From NCBI RefSeq assembly GCF_009931435.1, contig NZ_CP043414.1: a DNA stretch of 64,000 nucleotides; one strand, written 5' to 3'. Position numbers and translations under genes: made by a program. Each line of letters begins with the position of its first letter. The stretch's first letter is position 1. Of this stretch, positions 8,622 to 21,682 are shown one piece after another. Origin of the DNA: Escherichia coli (lineage in GTDB: Bacteria; Pseudomonadota; Gammaproteobacteria; Enterobacterales; Enterobacteriaceae). The notes below the pieces were generated by a model. It saw nothing but the letters and a program-made list of their open reading frames with translations. It did not search any database and had not been told where the DNA came from.

Positions 8622-10286
8622 TTAAAACGTTTCCCAGTTCTCTCCGCTATCTGCCACTGCCACTTTGCGCGGCGCAGATGGCGTCACAGTTTTTACTACT
8701 GCCGATGCTTCGCGCTGGCGTTGCTGCTCTTGCTGAATCCGGAACACTGCCACAGCTTCGGTCAGGCGACTGGCCTGCTCCTCCAGCGCGGCGGCGGCAG
8801 CGGCAGATTCTTCCACCAGCGCAGCGTTCTGTTGGGTTACCCGGTCCATCTCAGCAACCGCTAAGCCAACCTGATCGATACCACGGCTCTGCTCATCAGA
8901 AGCAGAAGCAATTTCGCCCATAATGTCCGTCACGCGGGTCACAGCGCTGACAATCTCCGCCATTGTTTCCCCGGCGCTTTCGACCAGCGTAGAGCCAACA
9001 TCCACTTTCCCCACCGAGTCTTCAATCAGGCTTTTAATTTCGCGAGCCGCCTGGGCGCTACGCTGGGCCAGATTACGCACTTCTCCCGCAACCACCGCAA
9101 AACCGCGCCCTTGCTCACCCGCACGCGCTGCTTCAACCGCCGCGTTCAAAGCCAGAATATTGGTCTGGAAGGCAATGCCGTCAATTACGCTGATAATATC
9201 GGCGATTTTCTGCGAGCTGGTGGAGATATCGCGCATGGTCTGCACCACGTTATCCACCACTTTGCCGCCACGTTGCGCCGTTTCGGAAGCACTTAACGCC
9301 AGGTGGCTGGCCTGACGCGCATTTTCGGCGTTCTGCTTCACCGTTGCGGTCAGTTGCTCCATGCTGGCTGCCGTCTCTTCCAGCGAAGCGGCCTGTTGCT
9401 CGGTGCGCGAAGAGAGATCGTTATTGCCGGTGGCGATTTCGCTGGCACCGCTATAGATAGCATTGGCCCCGTTGCGCACATCACCGACGGTACGCATCAG
9501 CTCTCCCTGCATATGGCGCAAACTCTCTGCCAGTTGCCCCATCTCATTAGAACCATCCACCTCAATCGGTTTCACCAGATCGCCACCTGCAATATGACGA
9601 ATGCTGTCAATCAGGCGATTCATTGGCGCTACCAACGAGGCTTTAATACCGAACCAGACGGCGAAGATGACCGCCAGTACGACGATCATCACGCCCACCA
9701 GAATCCACATCGCCTGGCTGTAGGAGGCATTATTATCGCTGACGGCGATATCATAGAGCCGATCGTTTTGCTCCATGTAAGCCACATACTGCTTCTCGAA
9801 ACCGTCCTGATATCCCTGAGTCGGCTGATCAAAGAATTCGTTGATTTTGCCTGCACCTAACAGTTGGATCAGTTCCGCCAGCGCATTGTGATAAATATCG
9901 TAATTACGTTTGATCTCTGCCGCTGCGGCGGTGCTCTGACGCGGGTCACGCGGCAATGCTTCGTAATCCGCCCAGTTTTTTTCCGCCTGTTTCAGCGAAA
10001 TACTGGCACTCTGCATCAGCTCGGCAACGGTTGAACCGCTACCAATATTGTTCTGATCCATCATGTAGCGGATACCCGCGCGGTTGAGGGTGTTACGCGT
10101 CTGCAACAACGCGACCCAGCTGCCATTCAGCGTGGATTGCTGCTGGCGAATGGTTTGTAAAACAGTGAAATTTTCTTTGTCATTCTTTAAGGCATTAAAG
10201 AACAGACCGCCTGATGTCAGTTGTAAAAGGCCAAAAACGGCCAAAACCAGCAGTAAGCTGGTCACGATCTTGATACGTTTTAACAT
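8622..10286 (-). CDS. tsr: Methyl-accepting chemotaxis protein I (serine chemoreceptor)
   Basis: Start chosen at [17 protein letters not shown] and highly conserved MCP signalling domain; C-terminal NWETF pentapeptide. Confidence 0.92.
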
Positions 10287-10425
10287 GGTTTCTCTTTCCA
10301 CTAGACAGATACACTGGTTGTCGGCCTGGTGGTGGAAAACTTTATGCTGTGGAAAAGCGTCGGCACTGCTTTTGTTGCAGCAAACTTGCGTTTTTTGTGA
10401 GGGTCACACTCTATAGCGGCAGTTT

Positions 10426-11331
10426 ATGGTACAAAGTATCAATCTTCTTCGAACCAGTGATACTCCTATGGCTTATAGCATCGATATCATCTCCTGCATT
10501 ACCGAACGATTTATGGCGTTAACAGCCACTGAAAAGCGTATCGCACAATTTATTCTTGATGACGTCTCTGCCGCAGTAGAGTTGCCAATTGCTGAGCTGG
10601 CACGGTTAACGCAAACCAGTCAGGCGTCGGTGACGCGTTTTGCCCGTGCACTGGGGTGCAAAGATGTCCGCGAGTTGAAAGTCAAACTGGCGCAGTCACT
10701 GGCTGTCGGGCAGCGGTTTATTCTCGATGTACCGGATCTTGACGGTGTTCAGGGGATCTACGAAGCGATTATTAGCGTGCTGGAAACGCATCGTCGTTCG
10801 CTGGATATGAATGCCATCAGCCAGGCTGTAAGCTGGTTAAGTCAGGCGCGGCAAATTCTTGCGTTAGGAACTGGCGGCGGTTCCACTATCTGTTCACAGG
10901 AGATTCAGTACCGTTTATTCCGTCTGGGGCTACCGGTGGTCAGTCAGAATGATGCCCTGATGATGAGAATGATGTGCTCGGCAGTGATGCCGCAGGATGT
11001 GGTGATTGTGCTGTCGCTGGGCGGTTATACACCGGAAATCATCGAAAGTGCGGCAATCGCCCGTCAGTATGGCGCGCGTGTTATTGCCATTACGCCAGCA
11101 CAAACACCGCTGGCGGAACAGGTGGATCTGGTATTGCCGTTACTGGTTCAGGAAAGTGATTACATCTTTAAGCCCACCCCTTCCCGCTACGCGATGTTAG
11201 CCATGGTCGATGTACTGGCAACAGAACTGGCAATGGCAAATAAAGCGCAGGCGAAAGATCGCCTGCGGCGGATAAAACTGGTGTTAGACAGCCACCGTGG
11301 GGGCGCTAACCGCCAGCCACTTGGCGATTAG
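10426..11331 (+). CDS. RpiR/MurR-family transcriptional regulator (HTH plus SIS domain)
   Basis: N-terminal HTH (AELARLTQTSQASVTRFARALG) and C-terminal SIS-like region; alternative start at M15 (10468). Confidence 0.7.
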   Translation: MVQSINLLRTSDTPMAYSIDIISCITERFMALTATEKRIAQFILDDVSAAVELPIAELARLTQTSQASVTRFARALGCKDVRELKVKLAQSLAVGQRFILDVPDLDGVQGIYEAIISVLETHRRSLDMNAISQAVSWLSQARQILALGTGGGSTICSQEIQYRLFRLGLPVVSQNDALMMRMMCSAVMPQDVVIVLSLGGYTPEIIESAAIARQYGARVIAITPAQTPLAEQVDLVLPLLVQESDYIFKPTPSRYAMLAMVDVLATELAMANKAQAKDRLRRIKLVLDSHRGGANRQPLGD

Positions 11332-11340
11332 CATTGTCGG

Positions 11341-12810
11341 TTATGCTTCTTCAGGTTTGGTGATCACGACACTCTGGTTTTCACGCTCATTGGTGATAAT
11401 AGCCAAAGCTTCTTCCCGGCTGACCTGACTTGCTGGCGTTACCAACGTCACCAGTACGCCAGCGACCAGGCTGCCCAGCACTGACGGAATACACGGGTTA
11501 CCCCAGTAAGCCAGCCAGTCGGCATTCATCAGCACCACAATTGACATCACCATACCGCTCACTAACGCCGCCAGCGCGCCCTGCCAGTTAAAGCGTAGCC
11601 AGAAGCGACCGAGAATCGAGCAGATAAACAGCCCGGACATCAGCATCGAAATCATTTTGGTAATGTAGCTGATGATGTCATTAGAGGTCAGAGCAAAGAC
11701 CAGCGCCAGGCCAATAACAAAGGTCAACATCCAGCGTGAGTAAGTAATGGCCTTGTCCTCCGGCGGCATTCTGCCGGTAATCATGGTGTAGACGTCGCGC
11801 ATCATAATCGCCACTGCCGCAATGGCATCAGAACTGGCAGAAGACATGGTGGCAGAAAGCCCGGCAATCAGCACCACCAGCCCAAGAATGGCAGGTAAGA
11901 AGCTGGTCGCGAACAAGAAGGCATAGTTACTGTTTTCCAGATTCGGGTTCATGGTGAACGCCGCCATGCCGATAATGGCAGGCAGAATCGAGAAGAACAG
12001 ATACAACACGCCAGTAATAACAAATGAACGCCGTACAGAGGGAACGTCTTTTCCCGAGTAAATACGCTGGCGATAAGATGGTGTGGCCAGTACGCCGACA
12101 CCAATAACCAGCGCCAGCGAAAGCGCAGGCAGCACGCCCATTTTATCAATCGCAAACAGGCTCATCGCTTTTGGGTCCATCGCCTGTTCAATCGCACTCC
12201 AGCCACCAACGTGAACAACGGCAAGAATAGCCATTAATATAAAGCCAAAGAACAGAATTAGGGCCTGAATAGTATCTGTCCACACTACCGCCGAATAACC
12301 GCCGATAATAACGTAAATCGCAAAAGCTAAGGCAATAATTAATTTTGCCACCGTAAGATCAATACCTGTCGCCCAGGCAAGATACATACTGCCACCTAAT
12401 ATATGCGCTCCCAGCCAGCCAATAGAGGCAATAAATATCATCAGGCCGACAATATTTTTAATTAAATGGCTGCCGCCAGTATAATAAGATATTTCTTCAC
12501 TCATGGTCATAAAACGTAATTTACGTACCGGTGCAAACAGCCACGCCACCAGTAATATACCTACGGCCCCACCGACGCCATAAAGCATTCCGGCCCAGCC
12601 ATTGCTGTAGCCAAAGCCCACTGCGCCCATACTGGAACCCGTGCCAACCATCGTGGCAACGGTTGACCCCAGCGTCAGAAACAGCGGCAGCGAACGCCCG
12701 CCCAACAGAAAATCTTCTCCGCTTTTCTGATTACGAGAAACAAACCAACCAAGCCAAATCATGGCGATGGCATAAATAATAAAGCCGACTAAAAAGATAT
12801 GACTGTTCAT
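11341..12810 (-). CDS. Sodium:solute symporter family transporter
   Basis: 489 aa polytopic membrane protein with SSS-like N-terminal region (GEDFLLGGRSLP). Confidence 0.75.
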   Translation of the reverse strand: MNSHIFLVGFIIYAIAMIWLGWFVSRNQKSGEDFLLGGRSLPLFLTLGSTVATMVGTGSSMGAVGFGYSNGWAGMLYGVGGAVGILLVAWLFAPVRKLRFMTMSEEISYYTGGSHLIKNIVGLMIFIASIGWLGAHILGGSMYLAWATGIDLTVAKLIIALAFAIYVIIGGYSAVVWTDTIQALILFFGFILMAILAVVHVGGWSAIEQAMDPKAMSLFAIDKMGVLPALSLALVIGVGVLATPSYRQRIYSGKDVPSVRRSFVITGVLYLFFSILPAIIGMAAFTMNPNLENSNYAFLFATSFLPAILGLVVLIAGLSATMSSASSDAIAAVAIMMRDVYTMITGRMPPEDKAITYSRWMLTFVIGLALVFALTSNDIISYITKMISMLMSGLFICSILGRFWLRFNWQGALAALVSGMVMSIVVLMNADWLAYWGNPCIPSVLGSLVAGVLVTLVTPASQVSREEALAIITNERENQSVVITKPEEA

Positions 12811-12912
12811 AATTCACATCCTGCCAGTAGAGAGAGAATAATGTAAGAGTTCCCGGAGTGCTGAATGTATTCAGCACTCAATTGCGGTCTGTTTTTTTAA
12901 TTCTTAAATTTA

Positions 12913-13308
12913 TTAGCGGGTCGCGTTATAACAGGTCACATCGACTTCGACTTTACAATCGACAACCAGATCAGCCACACAACAAATACGTGCAGGCGGA
13001 TTCTCGCCAAAAAATTCTCTGAATACTTTATTAAATGACTGGAAATAGCGGGCGTCGGTCAGGATCACTTTCACGTGAACCACATCCGCCAGGCTATAAC
13101 CGGCTTCAGTCATGATGTCGACACAGTTTTGGATCGCCAGTCGTGACTGTTCAACGATTCCGCCTTCTACCACTTCACCGTTTTTCATGGGTGTTTGCCC
13201 GGAGACGTACAGCCAGCCGCCCGCCTCAACCGCCCTGGCAAAAGGCAAATGCTGCCCGCCAGTGCCTGTTCCACCTTCCGTACCGTAACGTTTAATGCTC
13301 ATATTCAC
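12913..13308 (-). CDS. RidA/YjgF-family enamine/imine deaminase
   Basis: 131 aa, RidA-like size and sequence; real start may be the M at 13302. Confidence 0.7.
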   Translation of the reverse strand: MNMSIKRYGTEGGTGTGGQHLPFARAVEAGGWLYVSGQTPMKNGEVVEGGIVEQSRLAIQNCVDIMTEAGYSLADVVHVKVILTDARYFQSFNKVFREFFGENPPARICCVADLVVDCKVEVDVTCYNATR

Positions 13309-13311
13309 TCC

Positions 13312-14763
13312 TTAATGTGAGGTCTGCCGGCGCAGGAAGCGTCCCGCACGGCCTGTAATATGTTTATCGCGACCATAGCTCATAACGCCGTTCACCATCA
13401 CCGCCTCAATGCCATCTGCCGGGCGTTTGGGATCAGAAAAGCTGGCAACATCACGAATGGTTTGTGGATCGAACAACACCAGGTCCGCAAAATAACCGAC
13501 TTTCACCAGTCCACGCTGGGGCAGGCGAAAACGGCTGGCAGAAAGCCCGGTCATTTTGTGGATAGCCGTGGTCAGTGGGAATAAGCCTTCATCACGGCAA
13601 TAGTGGCCCAGCACACGAGGGAAGGCGCCCCATAAACGTGGATGCGGCATGGGATCATTGGGCAGGCCGTCAGAGCCAATCATACTGACCGGATAACTCA
13701 ACACTCGGCGGACGTCGCGCTCGTCCATGTTGTAATAGATAGCCCCGGCAGGCATTAGCAGCTTCGCGGCCTCCAGCATACTCATCTGCCAGTCGATGGC
13801 GATTTGCGCCAGTGTTTTCCCGGCCTGCTGCGGATGTGTTTGTGACCAGGTGATCATAATATCGAATTCGTCGGTGACTTGTTTGAGATCCAGCGTTGAA
13901 GAGCTGGCTGAGTAAGGGTAGACATCGCAGCCAATTTCCTGGTGTTGACGCATTTGGTCAAAAAAGGCCAACGTTTCTTTTGTCCGCCCCCAGTTTTTCG
14001 CCCCGGCGCATTTATGATGGGAAACCACGACAGGCACTTTGCCATGACGCCCAATACGAAACGCCTCATCCAGGGCATCGAGAATCGGTTCAAATTCAGA
14101 ACGCAGGTGGGTGGTATAAACGCCCTTCTCACCGGCTAATTCTTCCGCCAGCGCCATGACTTCTTCGGTAGTCGCCTGAAATGCTGTGGCATAGGCCAGC
14201 CCGGAACTTAACCCCAGCGCCCCCTGACTCAACGCCAGACGTAAGTCGGCGCGCATGGCGGCAATTTCATCCGCCGTCGCCGGGCGAAACAGGTCGTCCA
14301 TATGGTTATTACGCAGCGCCGTATGACCAATCAGCGTGCCAACGTTCAGTGACGGCCTGGCTGCTTCCACTGCCTGGGCATAGCTTTCAACGGTAGGATA
14401 AATAAAGTGCTCCGCTTCCCCCAACAGATTCATCGGGTCAGGAACTTCACCTTTCATTTTCGCCGACGCCGCACTGATCCCGCAGTTACCGACAATCACC
14501 GTAGTGATCCCCTGACTGATCTTTGGCAGATATTCCGGGATGCGAATAACGTTGATATCGTCATGGGTATGAACGTCGATAAACCCTGGTGCCAGCACCC
14601 GCCCTTCCCCGTCAATGACCTGCTGCGCCGTAGCGTTAAGCGCAGGGGCAATATCGACAATCCGATCACCTGTTATTGCCACGTCACCGCGAAATTCAGG
14701 GCCGCCGCTACCGTCGATAACGGTCACATTTTTGATTAACCAGTCAACCTGCATGTTCGTCAC
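13312..14763 (-). CDS. N-acyl-D-amino-acid deacylase (D-aminoacylase), amidohydrolase superfamily
   Basis: 483 aa; metal-binding HTHDD motif near N-terminus (GFIDVHTHDD); D-aminoacylase-like overall. Confidence 0.72.
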   Translation of the reverse strand: MTNMQVDWLIKNVTVIDGSGGPEFRGDVAITGDRIVDIAPALNATAQQVIDGEGRVLAPGFIDVHTHDDINVIRIPEYLPKISQGITTVIVGNCGISAASAKMKGEVPDPMNLLGEAEHFIYPTVESYAQAVEAARPSLNVGTLIGHTALRNNHMDDLFRPATADEIAAMRADLRLALSQGALGLSSGLAYATAFQATTEEVMALAEELAGEKGVYTTHLRSEFEPILDALDEAFRIGRHGKVPVVVSHHKCAGAKNWGRTKETLAFFDQMRQHQEIGCDVYPYSASSSTLDLKQVTDEFDIMITWSQTHPQQAGKTLAQIAIDWQMSMLEAAKLLMPAGAIYYNMDERDVRRVLSYPVSMIGSDGLPNDPMPHPRLWGAFPRVLGHYCRDEGLFPLTTAIHKMTGLSASRFRLPQRGLVKVGYFADLVLFDPQTIRDVASFSDPKRPADGIEAVMVNGVMSYGRDKHITGRAGRFLRRQTSH

Positions 14764-14954
14764 TCCATTTCTGCAATGGTGACAAGTTAACCATTTACAA
14801 GGACGAAAAACAGTGGAAAACTACGCAAAACCCAGATGATTTTCTGATACTTTTATTCATAAACTATAAGATAAATAAACTAAATATTTATATTTCATTT
14901 AGTTACAAATGATACTCACATCCGATACGGTGAAAAACTTAAAAGGTAAATGTT

Positions 14955-16175
14955 ATGAAATACCACTCAGAACCTCTGGTTCCCCATAAATCGGCCCTGA
15001 TGCAAATGCCCGCAAATCTCCTTGCCGAAGATGTCTGTTTACCTGCCGCGATCATTAAAAAGCAGGCCCTGGAGAACAACATTACGTGGATGCAGCGTTA
15101 TGCTGACGCGCGCGGCGTTTCGCTGGCACCGCACGGTAAAACCACCATGACGCCGTGGATTTTTCAGGCGCAGCAGGCAGCTGGTGCCTGGGCAATAGGT
15201 GTCGGTAGCGCATGGCAGGCTGGTGCGGCAATGGCGAGCGGTATTCAGCGAGTGCTGATGGTTAACCAGCTGGTCGGCAAGGCGAATATGCAGTTGATTG
15301 CCCAGTTGCAACGACATTACCCGACGGTCGATTTTATCTGCTGTATCGACAGCATTGAGAACGCCCGCGCTTTGTCTGCCTTTTTTGCCAGTCAGCAACA
15401 GACACTGAACGTGATGATTGAGTTGGGTGTCCCCGGCGGACGCTGTGGCTGCCGCTCAACGGATGCCGCACTGGCACTGGCTAAACAGGCGGCCCAATTA
15501 CCAGGGCTACGTCTGCGCGGGCTTGAGTTATATGAAGGTGTTTTACACGGTGACGATCCACAACCGCAGGTAGAAGCACTGCTGCGGGATGCCGCACAAC
15601 TGGCCTGTGATATGGCAAGTCTGGTTGATGGCGAATTTATTCTCACCGGAGCAGGCACGGTCTGGTATGACGTGGTGTGCAATATCTGGCTGGCGGCAGA
15701 AAAGCCTGATAACTGCCGCATTGTTATTCGCCCTGGCTGCTACATCACTCACGACACCGGGATCTACGACGCGGCACAACAACAGTTGCTTGCCCGCGAT
15801 CCTGTGGCCTGCGATCTGGCAGGCGATCTCACATCTGCGCTGGAACTGGTCGCCATGGTGCAATCGGTGCCGGAAGCTGATCGTGCGGTGGTAAATTTTG
15901 GTAAGCGTGATTGCGCCTTCGACGCCGGACTGCCGCAACCAGTCGCCCACTACCGCAACGGCAAATCACTGGCATTTGATCCACAGGCGATTCGCAGTAC
16001 AGGCATTATGGATCAGCACTGCATGTTGCAACTGTCAGCTAATAGCGACGTGCAAGTGGGGGATATTCTGGTGTTTGGCACATCGCATCCGTGCCTGACC
16101 TTCGACAAATGGAAAGCGTTGTTATTGACTGATGACGACTACAACGTACTGGCGGAATTAGACACTCTCTTCTAA
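14955..16175 (+). CDS. PLP-dependent alanine-racemase-fold enzyme, DSD1-like (D-serine / D-threo-hydroxy-amino-acid dehydratase or aldolase type)
   Basis: 406 aa; PHGKTT motif with candidate PLP lysine; divergent from the aminoacylase operon. Confidence 0.65.
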   Translation: MKYHSEPLVPHKSALMQMPANLLAEDVCLPAAIIKKQALENNITWMQRYADARGVSLAPHGKTTMTPWIFQAQQAAGAWAIGVGSAWQAGAAMASGIQRVLMVNQLVGKANMQLIAQLQRHYPTVDFICCIDSIENARALSAFFASQQQTLNVMIELGVPGGRCGCRSTDAALALAKQAAQLPGLRLRGLELYEGVLHGDDPQPQVEALLRDAAQLACDMASLVDGEFILTGAGTVWYDVVCNIWLAAEKPDNCRIVIRPGCYITHDTGIYDAAQQQLLARDPVACDLAGDLTSALELVAMVQSVPEADRAVVNFGKRDCAFDAGLPQPVAHYRNGKSLAFDPQAIRSTGIMDQHCMLQLSANSDVQVGDILVFGTSHPCLTFDKWKALLLTDDDYNVLAELDTLF

Positions 16176-16180
16176 GAATA

Positions 16181-16214
16181 CCCCTTCGGTTAATTATCGA
16201 AGGGGCATTTTTAT
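16181..16214 (+). terminator. Rho-independent terminator after the DSD1-like gene
   Basis: ccccttcg ... cgaagggg stem followed by cattttta T-run. Confidence 0.55.
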
Positions 16215-16442
16215 TGTGATCTCAATCACATATCCACCCGACGAATAATTCTTGCCCAACCGCTCACCGCCATTCCTGACCGCTTACGTCCCAAATATAA
16301 CCACTCAGTTATTTACCTTACTTTACGCGCGCGTAACTCTGGCAACATCACTGCAGGATAGCGGTCAATTTACCTCCTCAAACGCAACGCAAACCTAGAA
16401 CGGCTTCGGCCAACTATTAATCAATACATGCCAGGTTTTACT

Positions 16443-18593
16443 ATGGATACTAAAAAGATATTCAAGCACATACCCTGGGTGATTCTTGGAATCATCGGTG
16501 CATTCTGCCTCGCGGTAGTTGCATTACGTCGGGGGGAGCACGTCAGCGCCCTGTGGATCGTGGTCGCCTCTGTGTCGGTGTATCTGGTGGCTTATCGCTA
16601 CTACAGTCTGTACATCGCCCAGAAGGTGATGAAACTCGACCCCACGCGCGCGACGCCTGCGGTTATTAACAATGACGGTCTGAACTATGTTCCGACCAAC
16701 CGTTACGTGTTGTTTGGTCACCACTTCGCCGCTATCGCCGGTGCGGGTCCGCTGGTTGGTCCGGTTCTCGCCGCGCAGATGGGTTACCTGCCTGGCACAC
16801 TGTGGCTGCTGGCGGGGGTAGTGCTGGCCGGTGCGGTACAGGACTTTATGGTGCTGTTTATCTCTTCTCGCCGTAACGGCGCATCTCTCGGTGAGATGAT
16901 CAAAGAAGAGATGGGGCCAGTACCGGGGACTATCGCGCTGTTTGGCTGTTTCTTAATCATGATCATCATCCTCGCCGTTCTGGCGCTGATTGTGGTTAAA
17001 GCCCTGGCCGAAAGTCCGTGGGGGGTCTTCACCGTTTGCTCAACCGTACCGATTGCGCTGTTCATGGGTATCTACATGCGCTTTATCCGTCCGGGGCGTG
17101 TAGGTGAAGTCTCTGTTATTGGTATCGTGCTGCTGGTTGCCTCTATCTACTTCGGTGGCGTGATTGCTCACGATCCGTACTGGGGTCCGGCACTGACCTT
17201 TAAAGACACCACAATTACCTTCGCACTGATTGGCTATGCGTTTGTTTCCGCACTGCTGCCGGTGTGGCTGATCCTCGCACCGCGCGACTATCTGGCAACC
17301 TTCCTGAAAATCGGCGTTATCGTCGGCCTGGCGCTGGGTATCGTGGTGCTGAACCCGGAACTGAAAATGCCTGCGATGACCCAGTACATTGACGGTACTG
17401 GCCCGTTGTGGAAAGGCGCTCTGTTCCCGTTCCTGTTCATCACCATCGCCTGTGGTGCGGTATCTGGCTTCCACGCGCTGATCTCTTCCGGTACAACGCC
17501 GAAATTGCTGGCTAACGAAACCGACGCGCGTTTCATTGGCTACGGCGCAATGCTGATGGAGTCCTTCGTGGCGATTATGGCGCTGGTTGCTGCGTCCATC
17601 ATCGAACCGGGTCTTTACTTCGCGATGAATACCCCGCCTGCGGGCCTTGGCATCACCATGCCTAACCTGCATGAAATGGGTGGCGAGAACGCGCCGATCA
17701 TCATGGCGCAGCTGAAAGACGTTACCGCACACGCGGCAGCGACTGTCAGCTCCTGGGGCTTCGTGATTTCGCCAGAGCAGATCCTGCAAACCGCGAAAGA
17801 CATTGGTGAGCCTTCTGTCCTGAACCGTGCAGGTGGTGCGCCGACGCTGGCGGTAGGTATCGCTCACGTGTTCCACAAAGTGCTGCCGATGGCTGACATG
17901 GGCTTCTGGTATCACTTCGGTATTCTGTTCGAAGCCCTGTTCATCCTGACCGCGCTGGATGCGGGTACCCGTTCTGGCCGCTTTATGCTGCAAGACCTGC
18001 TGGGTAACTTCATCCCGTTCCTGAAAAAAACCGACTCTCTGGTTGCCGGCATCATCGGTACTGCGGGCTGTGTGGGTCTGTGGGGCTACCTGCTGTATCA
18101 GGGCGTGGTCGATCCGCTGGGCGGCGTTAAGAGCCTGTGGCCGCTGTTCGGTATCTCCAACCAGATGCTGGCAGCCGTAGCGCTGGTACTGGGCACCGTT
18201 GTGCTGATTAAGATGAAGCGCACCCAATACATCTGGGTGACTGTTGTTCCGGCTGTATGGCTGCTTATCTGCACCACCTGGGCGCTGGGCCTGAAACTGT
18301 TCAGCACCAACCCGCAGATGGAAGGCTTCTTCTACATGGCAAGCCAGTACAAAGAGAAGATTGCTAACGGTACTGACCTGACGGCACAGCAGATTGCCAA
18401 CATGAACCACATCGTTGTGAACAACTACACCAACGCGGGTCTGAGTATTCTGTTCCTGATTGTGGTGTACAGCATCATCTTCTACGGTTTCAAAACCTGG
18501 CTGAAGGTGCGTAACAGCGACAAACGTACTGACAAAGAAACTCCGTACGTTCCAATCCCGGAAGGCGGCGTGAAGATCTCTTCGCACCACTAA
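16443..18593 (+). CDS. btsT: Pyruvate/H+ symporter BtsT (CstA family)
   Basis: Start chosen at MDTKKIFKHIPWVILG (716 aa); large polytopic CstA-like protein. Confidence 0.9.
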   Translation: MDTKKIFKHIPWVILGIIGAFCLAVVALRRGEHVSALWIVVASVSVYLVAYRYYSLYIAQKVMKLDPTRATPAVINNDGLNYVPTNRYVLFGHHFAAIAGAGPLVGPVLAAQMGYLPGTLWLLAGVVLAGAVQDFMVLFISSRRNGASLGEMIKEEMGPVPGTIALFGCFLIMIIILAVLALIVVKALAESPWGVFTVCSTVPIALFMGIYMRFIRPGRVGEVSVIGIVLLVASIYFGGVIAHDPYWGPALTFKDTTITFALIGYAFVSALLPVWLILAPRDYLATFLKIGVIVGLALGIVVLNPELKMPAMTQYIDGTGPLWKGALFPFLFITIACGAVSGFHALISSGTTPKLLANETDARFIGYGAMLMESFVAIMALVAASIIEPGLYFAMNTPPAGLGITMPNLHEMGGENAPIIMAQLKDVTAHAAATVSSWGFVISPEQILQTAKDIGEPSVLNRAGGAPTLAVGIAHVFHKVLPMADMGFWYHFGILFEALFILTALDAGTRSGRFMLQDLLGNFIPFLKKTDSLVAGIIGTAGCVGLWGYLLYQGVVDPLGGVKSLWPLFGISNQMLAAVALVLGTVVLIKMKRTQYIWVTVVPAVWLLICTTWALGLKLFSTNPQMEGFFYMASQYKEKIANGTDLTAQQIANMNHIVVNNYTNAGLSILFLIVVYSIIFYGFKTWLKVRNSDKRTDKETPYVPIPEGGVKISSHH

Positions 18594-18856: not shown

Positions 18857-19813
18857 ATGAACCCGATTGCAGTTACCCTACTCACCGGTTTTTTAGGCGC
18901 AGGCAAAACCACCCTGCTGCGCCATATTCTTAATGAACAGCACGGCTACAAGATTGCCGTGATTGAAAACGAATTCGGCGAAGTCTCCGTTGATGATCAA
19001 CTGATTGGCGACCGCGCCACGCAGATCAAAACGCTGACCAACGGCTGCATCTGTTGTTCGCGCTCCAACGAGCTGGAGGACGCGCTACTCGACCTGCTGG
19101 ATAATCTCGACAAGGGCAATATTCAGTTCGATCGTCTGGTCATTGAATGCACCGGCATGGCCGATCCCGGCCCGATTATTCAGACCTTTTTCTCCCATGA
19201 GATTTTATGCCAGCGTTACCTGCTGGACGGCGTGATTGCGCTGGTGGATGCGGTACATGCCGATGAGCAGATGAACCAGTTCACCATCGCCCAGTCACAG
19301 GTTGGCTACGCCGACCGCATTCTGCTGACCAAAACCGACGTCGCAGGCGAAGCAGAAAAACTGCGTGAACGCCTGGCACGCATCAACGCCCGCGCACCGG
19401 TCTACACCGTCACCCACGGCGACATCGATCTGGGCCTGCTGTTCAACACCAACGGTTTTATGCTGGAAGAAAACGTCGTCAGCACCAAACCGCGTTTCCA
19501 CTTTATCGCGGATAAACAAAACGATATTTCGTCGATTGTGGTAGAACTGGATTACCCGGTAGATATCAGCGAAGTTTCCCGCGTGATGGAAAACCTGCTG
19601 CTGGAGTCGGCGGATAAACTGCTGCGTTACAAAGGGATGCTATGGATTGACGGCGAACCAAATCGCCTGCTGTTCCAGGGCGTCCAGCGCCTCTACAGCG
19701 CCGACTGGGACCGCCCGTGGGGCGATGAAAAACCGCATAGCACGATGGTGTTTATCGGGATTCAGCTGCCGGAGGAAGAGATTCGGGCTGCGTTTGCGGG
19801 GTTGAGGAAGTAA
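18857..19813 (+). CDS. yjiA: CobW/P47K-family GTPase YjiA
   Basis: Start at MNPIAVTLLTGFLGAGKTTLL (P-loop); 318 aa; ORF-track start at 18773 overlaps yjiX and is rejected. Confidence 0.9.
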   Translation: MNPIAVTLLTGFLGAGKTTLLRHILNEQHGYKIAVIENEFGEVSVDDQLIGDRATQIKTLTNGCICCSRSNELEDALLDLLDNLDKGNIQFDRLVIECTGMADPGPIIQTFFSHEILCQRYLLDGVIALVDAVHADEQMNQFTIAQSQVGYADRILLTKTDVAGEAEKLRERLARINARAPVYTVTHGDIDLGLLFNTNGFMLEENVVSTKPRFHFIADKQNDISSIVVELDYPVDISEVSRVMENLLLESADKLLRYKGMLWIDGEPNRLLFQGVQRLYSADWDRPWGDEKPHSTMVFIGIQLPEEEIRAAFAGLRK

Positions 19814-19827
19814 AATTTCACATTTTT

Positions 19828-19863
19828 CTTAAGCCGGAAGATATATATACCCCACCGGCTTAA
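19828..19863. terminator. Inverted repeat cttaagccgg / ccggcttaag between convergent yjiA and the 249-aa gene
   Basis: 10-bp perfect inverted repeat with 16-nt AT-rich spacer; candidate bidirectional terminator. Confidence 0.35.
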
Positions 19864-19878
19864 GAAAGTGCAATTCTC

Positions 19879-20628
19879 TTATGAAACATCACGAAATACA
19901 CAGGTAAGTTCTTTAGGACTTGCTTTCCATATATGGTCAAAGCCACTCGACAGCATGACTTCTATTTTTCCTTCCGGACTTTCAATTAGTAAATAGCGAT
20001 CATGGCAGTTTGTATATTTGGGATTTGTAGTGATTTGCACACTCCATTCAGGATGGATACAATGAACAAAATTACTATTTATTTTACTTCCGTTTTGGAC
20101 TGCAGCGACACCTACTGCGATTTCTGAAAATTCAATAACAAGCTCTTTTCTAGGTAGTACGGAATGAAATAAGCTGCATGTATTCTCCCAATTCTGTGCA
20201 AAGTAATTATCGCATATAATTACTTTTTTTGCATTGCAACATAGCATTTCCAGATACTTTTTTAAATATATTCTATTATCTGTAGGGCTTAATGTAACGG
20301 TAACTTGATTATTAACCATACCTTTTTTATAATGTACAAAGGGAAGTGATAAATTATCATTCTCAGTAAGGATTATTTTCAACAACGATTTAGATGCTAA
20401 AGTAACAAGATCATCATCACTTTCAGGCTGACTTGCTAACATAGATAAATATTGTCGATATTCTAACTCCGGCATCTTCAATCCTAAATTTCTTGCCTCA
20501 ATCCATTGCCTTTTGTTAGTTAAATAAGGTAGTACTAGTTTTTTATGTAATCTCTTCACCTTATTCTTATCATCCATATTTTCATATGCAACTAATAAAG
20601 ATGTATCAAGAACCATTTGATAAGACAT
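19879..20628 (-). CDS. Hypothetical 249-aa protein, third gene of the DUF262-ATPase operon (candidate effector)
   Basis: ATG at 20628 lies 4 nt after the ATPase stop with GAGG RBS inside the upstream gene; AT-rich; no motif I can assign. Confidence 0.6.
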   Translation of the reverse strand: MSYQMVLDTSLLVAYENMDDKNKVKRLHKKLVLPYLTNKRQWIEARNLGLKMPELEYRQYLSMLASQPESDDDLVTLASKSLLKIILTENDNLSLPFVHYKKGMVNNQVTVTLSPTDNRIYLKKYLEMLCCNAKKVIICDNYFAQNWENTCSLFHSVLPRKELVIEFSEIAVGVAAVQNGSKINSNFVHCIHPEWSVQITTNPKYTNCHDRYLLIESPEGKIEVMLSSGFDHIWKASPKELTCVFRDVS

Positions 20629-20632
20629 TTCT

Positions 20633-21682
20633 TTACCTCATCTTCATCAAATCATCTAAGGTTGCATCAAAAAAACCTAAAGGGAATCCCGTAACATTCT
20701 CTTGCAGATCGGTAAATTTCCCACCTTCATTAACTCTCATCGAGATAAAATCTTTATCCACATCAGGTTTATAATGTACAGAAATATCCTCAGAAGTTAT
20801 AACATCTTCATAAACCAAATACGCAAGTTTATTGATTAAATGTTCACAATGCGTTTCTACAATAATCTGGATACCCTTACTTGCTACAAATGCTAAAAAA
20901 ATTGCCAAATGAGACTGCGCTTTCGGATGCAATTGAATTTCGGGATTTTCTAGCAAAATAAGATCGCCTTTTTTTGCCATCAAACAAATAATCAAAACCT
21001 TTGCAATATAACTCATCCCAGCCCCAAGATTAAGAGGAGAAACATTTCCTTCAAGCTCTTTTAAGGTAAAAGCGACCTTAATCTGGTCACCAACTTTTTC
21101 AGTAACTAATTCAGACGTCGTTCCTGTAATCAGTTTCAACCAATAAGATAATTGATATGCAAGTGTTGTAGATTCGTGAACTTTCACCAGATATTCAGGT
21201 ACTGGCAAATGTTTCATTTTATCAAATGTTGAAAACAAGAATTCTCCTGCAACACCTACTCGACGTTCTGCGGTGGGCACAAATTCTTGTGCCCCCAAGC
21301 GGTTGGCATTCAGATAGAGCAACTCAGGTTCACTACCAGGCACTCTTGGCTCGTATTGATATCCCAGACGACTATCAATTTCGATATTTTCTGAGTTGAG
21401 CGTTAACGAATGAGAATTTTTTTCTGTATCCTGGACTGTTATAACAATAGATTTTGCGTTATTTTTTTTATTTCTAATAACAGGAAAATCAGCTAGAAAT
21501 CGGATAACTTCTTCCATACTATACTGATTAACAGAAGCGCTATTTTTAATTAGTAACATCAATGCCTGAATAACGCTGGATTTACCAGAAGAGTTAGTTC
21601 CAGTTAAAATGGTCAGTGGTGATAACACCAGACTTGTTGAGCCTAAACTTTTAAATCCTTGAATGTTAATATTTGTAAGCAT
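20633..21682 (-). CDS. P-loop ATPase (ABC/AAA_21-like), second gene of the DUF262-ATPase operon
   Basis: Walker A GTNSSGKSS near N-terminus; Walker B-like DLILLENPEIQLHP; start overlaps upstream gene by 17 nt. Confidence 0.75.
   Translation of the reverse strand: MLTNINIQGFKSLGSTSLVLSPLTILTGTNSSGKSSVIQALMLLIKNSASVNQYSMEEVIRFLADFPVIRNKKNNAKSIVITVQDTEKNSHSLTLNSENIEIDSRLGYQYEPRVPGSEPELLYLNANRLGAQEFVPTAERRVGVAGEFLFSTFDKMKHLPVPEYLVKVHESTTLAYQLSYWLKLITGTTSELVTEKVGDQIKVAFTLKELEGNVSPLNLGAGMSYIAKVLIICLMAKKGDLILLENPEIQLHPKAQSHLAIFLAFVASKGIQIIVETHCEHLINKLAYLVYEDVITSEDISVHYKPDVDKDFISMRVNEGGKFTDLQENVTGFPLGFFDATLDDLMKMR

Follow-up and report, generated by a model that had tools for sequence, protein, structure and literature searches.

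In a 64-kb window of the Escherichia coli genome (contig NZ_CP043414.1; the window is the whole stretch of 64,000 nucleotides that was analysed), inspection of open reading frames (ORFs) revealed a block of five intact genes between tsr (8622–10286, minus strand) and btsT (16443–18593, plus strand). When we compared the btsT–tsr interval of K-12 MG1655 with the window by blastn, K-12 homology ended at 10346 and resumed at 16260. The K-12-absent segment (10347–16259) is 5,913 bp long, compared to 135 bp in K-12, and contains the five genes together with the regions that control them; in the K-12 annotation, btsT and tsr are adjacent and 377 bp apart. An initial annotation, made from the letters of this DNA alone, had placed five genes in about 5.9 kb between tsr and btsT and had taken the two flanking genes to be neighbours in K-12; both statements agree with what we found, and the five genes are absent from MG1655. 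In our view, the block is likely to represent, in E. coli, a version of the ong pathway, one that acts on a 2-acetamido-2-deoxy-D-hexonic acid, which is an oxidised N-acetyl amino sugar; we use the ong gene names here.

The block consists of a minus-strand operon, ongB-ongD-ongIT, a divergent gene for an enzyme dependent on pyridoxal phosphate (PLP) and a convergent RpiR/SIS regulator gene, which is the layout that the initial annotation had described. ongR (10468–11331, plus strand) encodes a regulator of the MurR/RpiR family with HTH_6 and SIS domains, the predicted repressor of the cluster. The ongR and ongIT stop codons converge on a 9-bp spacer (11332–11340), the site at which relatives carry dgoK-like and dgoA-like genes. 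ongIT (11341–12810, minus strand) matches the model of the sodium/solute symporter (SSS) superfamily and encodes the predicted inner-membrane importer of the sugar acid. It is separated by 102 bp from ongD (12913–13302, minus strand), which matches Rid family models and encodes a RidA-family protein, predicted to be the enamine/imine deaminase partner of OngC; 9 bp further on lies ongB (13312–14754, minus strand), by homology a metal-dependent de-N-acetylase and an amidohydrolase of the D-aminoacylase fold. The 200 bp between ongB and ongC (14755–14954) form a putative divergent control region, as suggested by an alignment of six enterobacterial intergenic regions. ongC (14955–16175, plus strand) encodes, by homology, a fold-type III PLP-dependent ammonia-lyase that would convert an amino-hexonate to a 2-keto-3-deoxy-hexonate, and 6 nt past its stop codon a consensus scan picked out a terminator-like hairpin with a 10-bp stem and a T run (16181–16215, plus strand). 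As gene starts we used those that the NCBI Prokaryotic Genome Annotation Pipeline (PGAP) had assigned in an E. coli genome of 99.1% identity, which agree with the orthologues. The longest ORF of the regulator begins at an upstream in-frame ATG (10426) that overlaps a conserved palindrome, whereas both PGAP and the orthologues place the start at 10468; the longest ORFs likewise over-extend the deacetylase by 3 codons (GTG at 14763) and the RidA protein by 2 codons (GTG at 13308).

Just upstream of the ongR start, a palindrome TGGTAC-AAA-GTAYCA is found in E. coli, Citrobacter, Leclercia and Klebsiella, and it is perfect (TGGTACAAAGTACCA) in Citrobacter and Leclercia. In E. coli the palindrome reads TGGTAC-AAA-GTATCA (10427–10441), and 16 nt past it lies a TGATAC element (TGATACT, 10458–10464) that is kept in Citrobacter and Klebsiella and is TGATTC in Leclercia. 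Four of the nine copies of AGTATCA/TGATACT in the window fall within the short intergenic regions of the block, and a GTATCA half-site lies at 14910–14916. We regard the conserved palindrome (with its neighbouring element, 10427–10464, plus strand) and the half-sites as candidate OngR operators, at which OngR would bind. Upstream of ongB, a 25-nt sequence, TTTTGCGTAGTTTTCCACTGTTTTT (14806–14830, ongB strand), is invariant in six enterobacterial genera, compared to a coding identity of ~76%. Two further blocks, TGTAAATGGTTAAC (14786–14799) and TGAATAAAAGTATCA (14845–14859), are also invariant in the six enterics; all of these blocks lie on the ongB side of the ongC–ongB spacer, the rest of which has diverged. 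The conserved non-coding blocks had no match in Rfam. A promoter scan returned no more sites than it did in shuffled sequence, and no promoter was called.

The ong cluster of Pseudoalteromonas prydzensis ACAM 620 comprises eight genes that are induced by N-acetyl-D-glucosaminic acid (GlcNAc1A, an oxidised chitin sugar) and required for growth on it, and the route runs from GlcNAc1A uptake through deacetylation to deamination, which yields 2-keto-3-deoxygluconate (KDG; Jiang 2022, PMC9537276). An ong cluster was defined in that work as at least four co-located homologues with >30% identity to the ACAM 620 ong genes (PMC9537276); in the E. coli block, five of the eight genes are co-located, with 44–84% identity to the cluster of Pseudoalteromonas locus L004 (below). 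We searched 80 loci encoding OngB relatives by tblastn with the five E. coli proteins. P. prydzensis is not among these loci, and P. haloplanktis ATCC 14393 (OngB 91% identical to PpOngB, the P. prydzensis enzyme) and P. neustonica served as stand-ins. In Pseudoalteromonas locus L004 (OngB 91% identical to PpOngB), homologues of all five proteins are co-located (OngC 44%, OngR 44%, OngB 53%, OngD 84% and OngIT 57% identity), and the ORF lengths in L004 and L005 equal those of the published ong proteins. In Vibrio, the five are again co-located (OngC 44–48%, OngR 51–55%, OngB 60–62%, OngD 84–86%, OngIT 68–69%), and the same is true of many other genera. Among published Vibrio isolates, all five with the cluster grow on GlcNAc1A and none of the six without it do. 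No homologue of a lytic polysaccharide monooxygenase (LPMO), a TonB-dependent receptor or the GH20 protein OngA was found in the E. coli loci, and the PfkB KDG kinase gene (kdgK) is absent from the block in the window.

The assignment of the E. coli block to the ong family is already on record and is not new. Supplementary Data 3 of Jiang 2022 scores 14 E. coli strains, E. fergusonii ECD227 and one Escherichia sp. as ong-positive, with ongC, ongR, ongB, ongD and ongIT present and lpmo, ongOT-1, kdgK and ongA absent; the main text of that paper does not discuss E. coli (PMC9537276). Our own case for the assignment is made by orthology, synteny, active-site conservation and purifying selection, with the reactions predicted from the Pseudoalteromonas enzymes, the only ones for which they are known. 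Beyond the published listing, our comparisons suggest retention of the block rather than its insertion, loss of two operon genes in E. coli and possible use of a galacto epimer.

The best match to E. coli OngB in the PDB is KleDacyl of Klebsiella pneumoniae (9G5M; 935 bits, ~85% identity), followed by PpOngB (562 bits), the Alcaligenes D-aminoacylase (461 bits) and the Bordetella N-acyl-D-glutamate deacylase (393 bits). The structure of PpOngB with GlcNAc1A names both the contact residues and the residues that part deacetylase from D-aminoacylase activity (Wang et al. 2025, PMC12017989). At the separating positions, PpOngB has Ser292 and Gln298, where D-aminoacylases have Thr and Leu or Arg, respectively, together with the small or polar Ala193, Ala256 and Gly348, for which the Alcaligenes enzyme has Phe, Met and Met (PMC12017989). 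In an 84-sequence alignment, E. coli OngB is the same as PpOngB at L116, A193, Y194, E226, K254, A256, Y285, S290, S291, S292, Q298, D368, L370 and R379, and the sole difference among the named positions is residue 348, which is Asn. This residue is also Asn in Klebsiella, Leclercia, Franconibacter and the Burkholderiaceae, and the remaining 42 OngB-like sequences of the alignment have Gly or Cys. In contrast, the Alcaligenes enzyme differs from PpOngB at 193, 256, 290, 292, 298 and 348, and the hydrophobic pocket of D-aminoacylases (Phe191, Met254, Leu298, Met346 and Thr for Ser292) is not kept in E. coli OngB, which has Ala, Ala, a Gln-containing loop, Asn and Ser.

PpOngB and two homologues were published as active on GlcNAc1A only, with no activity on ten N-acetyl-D-amino acids, and PpOngB has a kcat/Km of 1.6 per s per mM on GlcNAc1A (PMC12017989). 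The publication on KleDacyl presents it as a D-acylase for producing D-amino acids; it is D-specific and hydrolyses N-acetyl-D-Met, N-acetyl-D-Phe and N-acetyl-D-Trp, with Km values of 19–32 mM and kcat/Km values of 1.5–2.8 per min per mM across substrates (32 mM and 2.8 per min per mM for N-acetyl-D-Met; PMC12149444). The kcat/Km of KleDacyl is ~30-fold below that of PpOngB on GlcNAc1A. The D-acylase activity of KleDacyl looks like a side reaction, and its physiological substrate was probably missed. A Klebsiella-type contig (L087, 1458–2897) encodes a protein that is 85% identical to E. coli OngB and 479 amino acids long, which is the native length of KleDacyl, and this gene lies inside a seven-gene ong-like operon.

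The other four proteins fit the same family. In Pfam, OngC matches both PF01168 (Ala_racemase_N) and PF14031 (D-ser_dehydrat), and its APHGKT motif, which contains the PLP lysine, aligns with that of its nearest solved relative, 3GWQ, a 'D-serine deaminase' of Burkholderia xenovorans (361 bits). Characterised D-serine dehydratases and D-threonine aldolases score at most 102 bits against OngC, which instead falls with the syntenic OngC proteins (42–51% identity). OngD scores 82 bits against TIGR00004, below the subfamily cutoff, and contains a PAR motif with the RidA arginine, a residue whose active-site role is established for RidA; it is 84–87% identical to OngD of Pseudoalteromonas and Vibrio. 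OngIT is 57% identical to the Pseudoalteromonas protein and 68–69% to those of Vibrio. The best NCBIfam match of OngR is HexR, below the cutoff of that model, and OngR is 44% identical to its homologue in Pseudoalteromonas, up to 55% in Vibrio and 86% in Leclercia. In P. prydzensis, OngB deacetylates GlcNAc1A, OngC converts the deacetylated product to KDG and NH3, deletion of ongD abolishes growth on GlcNAc1A, OngIT is essential for GlcNAc1A uptake and growth, and OngR is a repressor; the Pseudoalteromonas OngC also deaminates D-serine and D-threonine (PMC9537276). An SIS-domain regulator had seemed out of place beside amino-acid enzymes in the initial annotation, and it is explained because the block is of the ong type, a sugar-acid pathway in which an OngR repressor is expected.

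On this basis, we propose a route in which the free sugar acid would cross the outer membrane through general porins and would be imported by the Na+/solute symporter OngIT. OngB, as a mononuclear metal amidohydrolase, would then remove the acetyl group, and OngC would use PLP to eliminate the C3 hydroxyl and the amino group, giving a 2-keto-3-deoxy-hexonate and ammonia, with OngD presumably speeding the hydrolysis of the enamine/imine. For the last steps, core enzymes encoded outside the block would add a phosphate to the keto-deoxy acid and split it into pyruvate and glyceraldehyde-3-phosphate (KdgK and Eda for a gluco product, DgoK and DgoA for a galacto product). OngR would keep the two divergent promoters of ongB and ongC repressed, and probably its own promoter too, until either the substrate or a phospho-intermediate from further down the pathway is present. 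Since there is no LPMO, GH20 hexosaminidase or TonB receptor here, E. coli would be limited to scavenging monomer that other organisms, or chemical oxidation, had generated.

To gauge how common the block is, we counted it in complete E. coli genomes and found it at ≥80% query coverage in 193 of 5,426 (~3.6%); 194 genomes carry ongC when this gene is counted by itself. In each of the four E. coli genomes that we compared, the five ORFs are all intact, and dN/dS for the five genes together is 0.044–0.079 relative to three other E. coli alleles, similar to tsr (0.03–0.07), a pattern that indicates purifying selection on the five genes. Among the 60 best-matching carriers of the block, 29 come from chickens, turkeys or other birds, to which clonal sampling may contribute. 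Many of these carriers, including the avian pathogenic E. coli (APEC) strains APEC O78:H4 and APEC O2-211, share one 98.5% allele, and enterotoxigenic E. coli (ETEC) of serotype O6:H16 are another group among the carriers.

The initial annotation had read the block as an inserted islet. In Citrobacter freundii, the gene order is yjiA-yjiX-btsT, the cluster, then tsr-lgoT-lgoR, so that the position is identical to that in E. coli; in Leclercia, the cluster lies between the hpa cluster and tsr-lgoT, and in Klebsiella, it lies near lgoT. Nucleotide identity between E. coli and Citrobacter is 76–83% for the five genes, compared to 78% for tsr, 82% for lgoT, 88% for btsT and 86% for yjiA in the flanks. 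We found no tRNA gene at the block, no direct repeats at its boundaries and no integrase or mobility gene among its ORFs, and its GC content (0.43–0.57) is like that of the flanks, with no composition anomaly. Because the site is shared, the divergence is flank-like and marks of mobility were not found, retention followed by loss fits better than recent insertion. The block was probably inherited from an enterobacterial ancestor and lost in most E. coli lineages, possibly with recombinational exchange of the block between E. coli lineages. In the window, GC content drops to 0.31–0.38 at ~19800–21000, directly past yjiA, where K-12 has the mrr/hsd restriction region and Citrobacter has mcrBC.

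Other gene clusters occupy the same interval in other strains. The hpa (4-hydroxyphenylacetate) cluster lies between tsr and btsT in E. coli B and C strains; hpaB is present in 2,072 of the 5,426 genomes, and its location at tsr–btsT was checked in C41(DE3). In ETEC TW10598, the ong block is followed by a hydroxyproline-type cluster beside ongC, with genes for an Ldh-family oxidoreductase, a permease of the amino acid-polyamine-organocation (APC) superfamily, an aldehyde dehydrogenase, a protein of the dihydrodipicolinate synthase (DHDPS) family, an AraC regulator and a 4-hydroxyproline epimerase. Leclercia carries both hpa and ong. Past the ongC terminator, 63 bp (16197–16259) are common to hpa-type strains and are not found in K-12. 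The tsr–btsT interval is a mosaic site at which alternative catabolic modules (ong, hpa and hydroxyproline-type) are differentially retained. The 63 bp include a CRP-like site, TGTGATCTCAATCACA (16215–16230), upstream of btsT, and a similar sequence, TGTGATATGAATCACA, is present in K-12's own 135-bp segment.

The closest relatives of the E. coli block are larger by two genes. Outside E. coli, a DGOK-family kinase gene (PF05035) and a PF01081 aldolase gene lie between ongIT and ongR, tightly packed against or overlapping their neighbours, in seven loci of the enteric type: Citrobacter, Klebsiella, Leclercia, L088, Buttiauxella agrestis, Serratia odorifera and Pseudomonas sp. M30-35. The cluster kinase is 55% identical to E. 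coli DgoK. The cluster aldolase is 58–69% identical to E. coli DgoA, compared to 26% to Eda, and it passes the NCBIfam model of aldolases for 2-keto-3-deoxy-6-phosphogalactonate (KDPGal), scoring 302 bits where the cutoff is 207. DgoA Val154 occupies a position that we take to set the stereochemistry between KDPGal and 2-keto-3-deoxy-6-phosphogluconate (KDPG); there the cluster aldolase has Val, whereas Eda and the Vibrio cluster aldolase have Thr. When we compared E. coli with Citrobacter locus L086, the kinase and aldolase genes were cleanly missing from E. coli, with the 9-bp spacer left in their place, and this comparison indicates that E. coli cleanly lost a DgoK-type kinase and a DgoA-type aldolase from the operon. 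None of the 5,426 complete E. coli genomes has the seven-gene form, and the Citrobacter dgoK-dgoA DNA matches only the core dgo operon in them, at 66–67% identity; at least 5,020 of these genomes contain the core dgoK-dgoA pair. Franconibacter pulveris also has a five-gene form (L074, ~9793–14376), in which ongIT and ongR lie too close together for the kinase and aldolase genes to fit, which suggests a second, independent loss.

Residue 348 of OngB and the lower-pathway genes of the 80 loci were also compared. Among the 41 loci in which position 348 is Gly or Cys, 20 contain PfkB KdgK and none contains both DgoK and DgoA, although one has a lone DgoK-like gene ~9 kb away; none of the loci with Asn348 contains KdgK. 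In a neighbour-joining (NJ) tree, the Asn348 sequences are not monophyletic (0 of 200 bootstraps), and the enteric OngB clade is recovered in 200 of 200 bootstraps, its sister grouping with Vibrio in 133 of 200 only. In Paraburkholderia (L043), DgoK and DgoA are encoded 2.3 kb away in a separate IclR-regulated unit with an AraGH-like sugar ABC transporter. These features of the tree and of Paraburkholderia weaken the correlation between residue 348 and the lower-pathway genes. A co-occurrence of Asn348 with DgoK/DgoA in two independent lineages was considered and dropped, as Asn348 is not monophyletic and the Paraburkholderia genes belong to a separate unit.

GlcNAc1A as the main substrate has a probability that we put just short of even, counted as a share of the total rather than within the ong assignment. 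Several points weigh against GlcNAc1A, or against a working ong pathway in E. coli altogether. The nearest relatives are of the DgoK/DgoA type, not the KdgK/Eda type, and so GlcNAc1A may not be the substrate. At residue 348, E. coli has Asn, whereas PpOngB has Gly, as do the four Pseudoalteromonas loci of greatest similarity, and the Vibrio clade whose isolates grow on GlcNAc1A has Cys. The block lacks its own kinase and aldolase, and a source of hexosaminic acids in the habitat of E. coli is only presumed. In the literature we found no published experiment on a hexosaminic acid for any enterobacterial member, and the sole enzymology on a close relative, that of KleDacyl, covered hydrophobic N-acetyl amino acids only (PMC12149444). 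The C4 epimer N-acetyl-D-galactosaminic acid (GalNAc1A), or both epimers, is a serious though tentative candidate, its probability again reckoned over the total, and what is left of the probability goes to some other substrate. In its strict form, this explanation holds that the enteric branch, including the E. coli block, is galacto-specific and runs from GalNAc1A through D-galactosaminate and 2-keto-3-deoxy-D-galactonate to DgoK and DgoA (De Ley–Doudoroff pathway); it is a substrate variant nested within the ong explanation, and we regard it as possible, with well under an even share of the whole probability. The packed or overlapping string ongB-ongD-ongIT-DGOK-aldolase in the seven loci, the resemblance of the kinase to DgoK and the Val154 of the DgoA-like aldolase argue for it, as does retention of core dgoK-dgoA in E. 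coli; every enteric copy of OngB has Asn at residue 348, and its counterpart in KleDacyl, Asn342, is in contact with a bound glycerol molecule (PMC12149444). On the other hand, no contact residue is changed, not even Glu226, which in PpOngB binds GlcNAc1A at its C4 hydroxyl; the operon-embedded kinase and aldolase represent a single evolutionary event, and E. coli itself lacks both genes. The separate Paraburkholderia unit means that the link to Asn348 there may be a coincidence, the Asn348 sequences do not form one clade, and we found no literature on galactosaminate catabolism. Somewhat more doubtful still is the broader proposal that the whole enteric ong branch, KleDacyl included, is an undescribed pathway for GalNAc1A (or both epimers) and not a GlcNAc1A pathway, in which E. 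coli would use its core dgo genes.

Two further explanations were weighed. The initial annotation had proposed a module for N-acyl-D-amino acids and D-amino acids (D-serine, D-threonine and hydroxy-D-amino acids), and the D-specificity of KleDacyl, 85% identical to E. coli OngB, on N-acetyl-D-Met, -D-Phe and -D-Trp (PMC12149444) and the deamination of D-serine and D-threonine by the Pseudoalteromonas OngC (PMC9537276) both speak for it. However, KleDacyl is a poor D-acylase by the ~30-fold margin given above, every residue of the D-aminoacylase hydrophobic pocket is replaced in E. coli OngB, and the ten N-acetyl-D-amino acids were not substrates of PpOngB and its two homologues. The transporter groups with sugar and sialic-acid symporters, the regulator is an SIS protein of the sugar-phosphate type, and the operons of relatives embed enzymes for keto-deoxy sugar acids; we therefore consider this model quite improbable. 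Even less probable, in our estimate, is that the block is a decaying remnant of the seven-gene cluster, with no working pathway in E. coli since the kinase and aldolase were lost. Such decay would fit the absence of the DGOK and aldolase genes of the seven relatives and the presence of the block in only 3.6% of genomes, but the five ORFs are intact in four genomes with dN/dS of 0.04–0.08, the same as tsr, the promoter-region blocks are conserved, and Franconibacter is five-gene as well. Core dgoK/dgoA can supply the missing steps, and kdgK and eda, which also belong to the E. coli core, could likewise fill in the lower pathway. The order of reactions in the initial annotation (uptake, deacylation, PLP-dependent elimination and RidA action) is that of the characterised ong pathway, and its substrate class differs: the five genes are syntenic orthologues of the ong cluster, and GlcNAc1A, although formally an N-acetyl-D-alpha-amino acid, is a sugar acid. 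The substrate that it had left unnamed is largely supplied by the published ong work, which lists E. coli strains with these five genes. The chemistry first proposed for the block is right in outline, and the substrate class and the insertion probably are not.

Taken together, the block is a real accessory catabolic module under selection, in a recently characterised family. Its identity corrects misleading database names, and the same applies to the Klebsiella structure 9G5M, which was published as a D-acylase though it is encoded inside a sugar-acid operon. As a strain-variable nutrient trait, the module would allow E. coli to scavenge oxidised amino sugars released by the LPMOs of others or by oxidation, without chitinolytic machinery of its own. 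The mosaic tsr–btsT locus is useful for studies of the nutrient niches of E. coli lineages, and the DgoK/DgoA-type genes of the enteric relatives pose a concrete question of gluco versus galacto substrates; if the galacto form were true, oxidised GalNAc, for example from mucin or GalNAc-rich glycans, would be a nutrient for gut Enterobacteriaceae.

Compared to the ong cluster of P. prydzensis, the E. coli block has the same RpiR repressor, SSS importer, deacetylase of the D-aminoacylase fold, fold-III PLP deaminase and RidA protein, but it lacks the TonB receptor, GH20 OngA and PfkB KdgK, and the genome lacks an LPMO. The gene order also differs, being ongCRBD plus ongIT-kdgK-ongA in P. prydzensis, whereas in E. 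coli ongB-ongD-ongIT lies between a divergent ongC and a convergent ongR; OngB position 348 is Gly in the former and Asn in the latter. Lower-pathway genes are of the KdgK/Eda type in ong loci with Gly or Cys348, in contrast to the DgoK/DgoA type in the nearest relatives of E. coli. The seven-gene enterobacterial cluster shares the layout and the promoter blocks of E. coli, whose proteins are 76–96% identical to the Leclercia copies, and it lies between btsT and tsr-lgoT in Citrobacter (as in E. coli), while Leclercia has it beside tsr and Klebsiella close to lgoT; the difference is that E. coli is without the dgoK-like and dgoA-like genes. With D-aminoacylases, E. coli OngB shares the fold, the Cys/His/His metal site, the catalytic Asp and ~47% identity, but its pocket for the side chain is polar, lined by Ala, Ala, Ser, Gln and Asn, where theirs is hydrophobic or basic (Phe, Met, Thr, Leu/Arg, Met), and its specificity loop is unrelated in sequence. 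The dga system of Salmonella (a permease of the phosphotransferase system (PTS), the ammonia-lyase DgaE and the aldolase DgaF) likewise takes an amino-sugar acid to a keto-deoxy acid and into the Entner–Doudoroff lower pathway, but with unrelated proteins, PTS phosphorylation before deamination, no deacetylase, sigma-54 control and another locus. The D-glucosaminate pathway of E. coli STc95 is presumably a PTS system of this Salmonella dga type, unrelated to the block; it is predicted in that strain as 'D-glucosaminate degradation' (PWY-7310).

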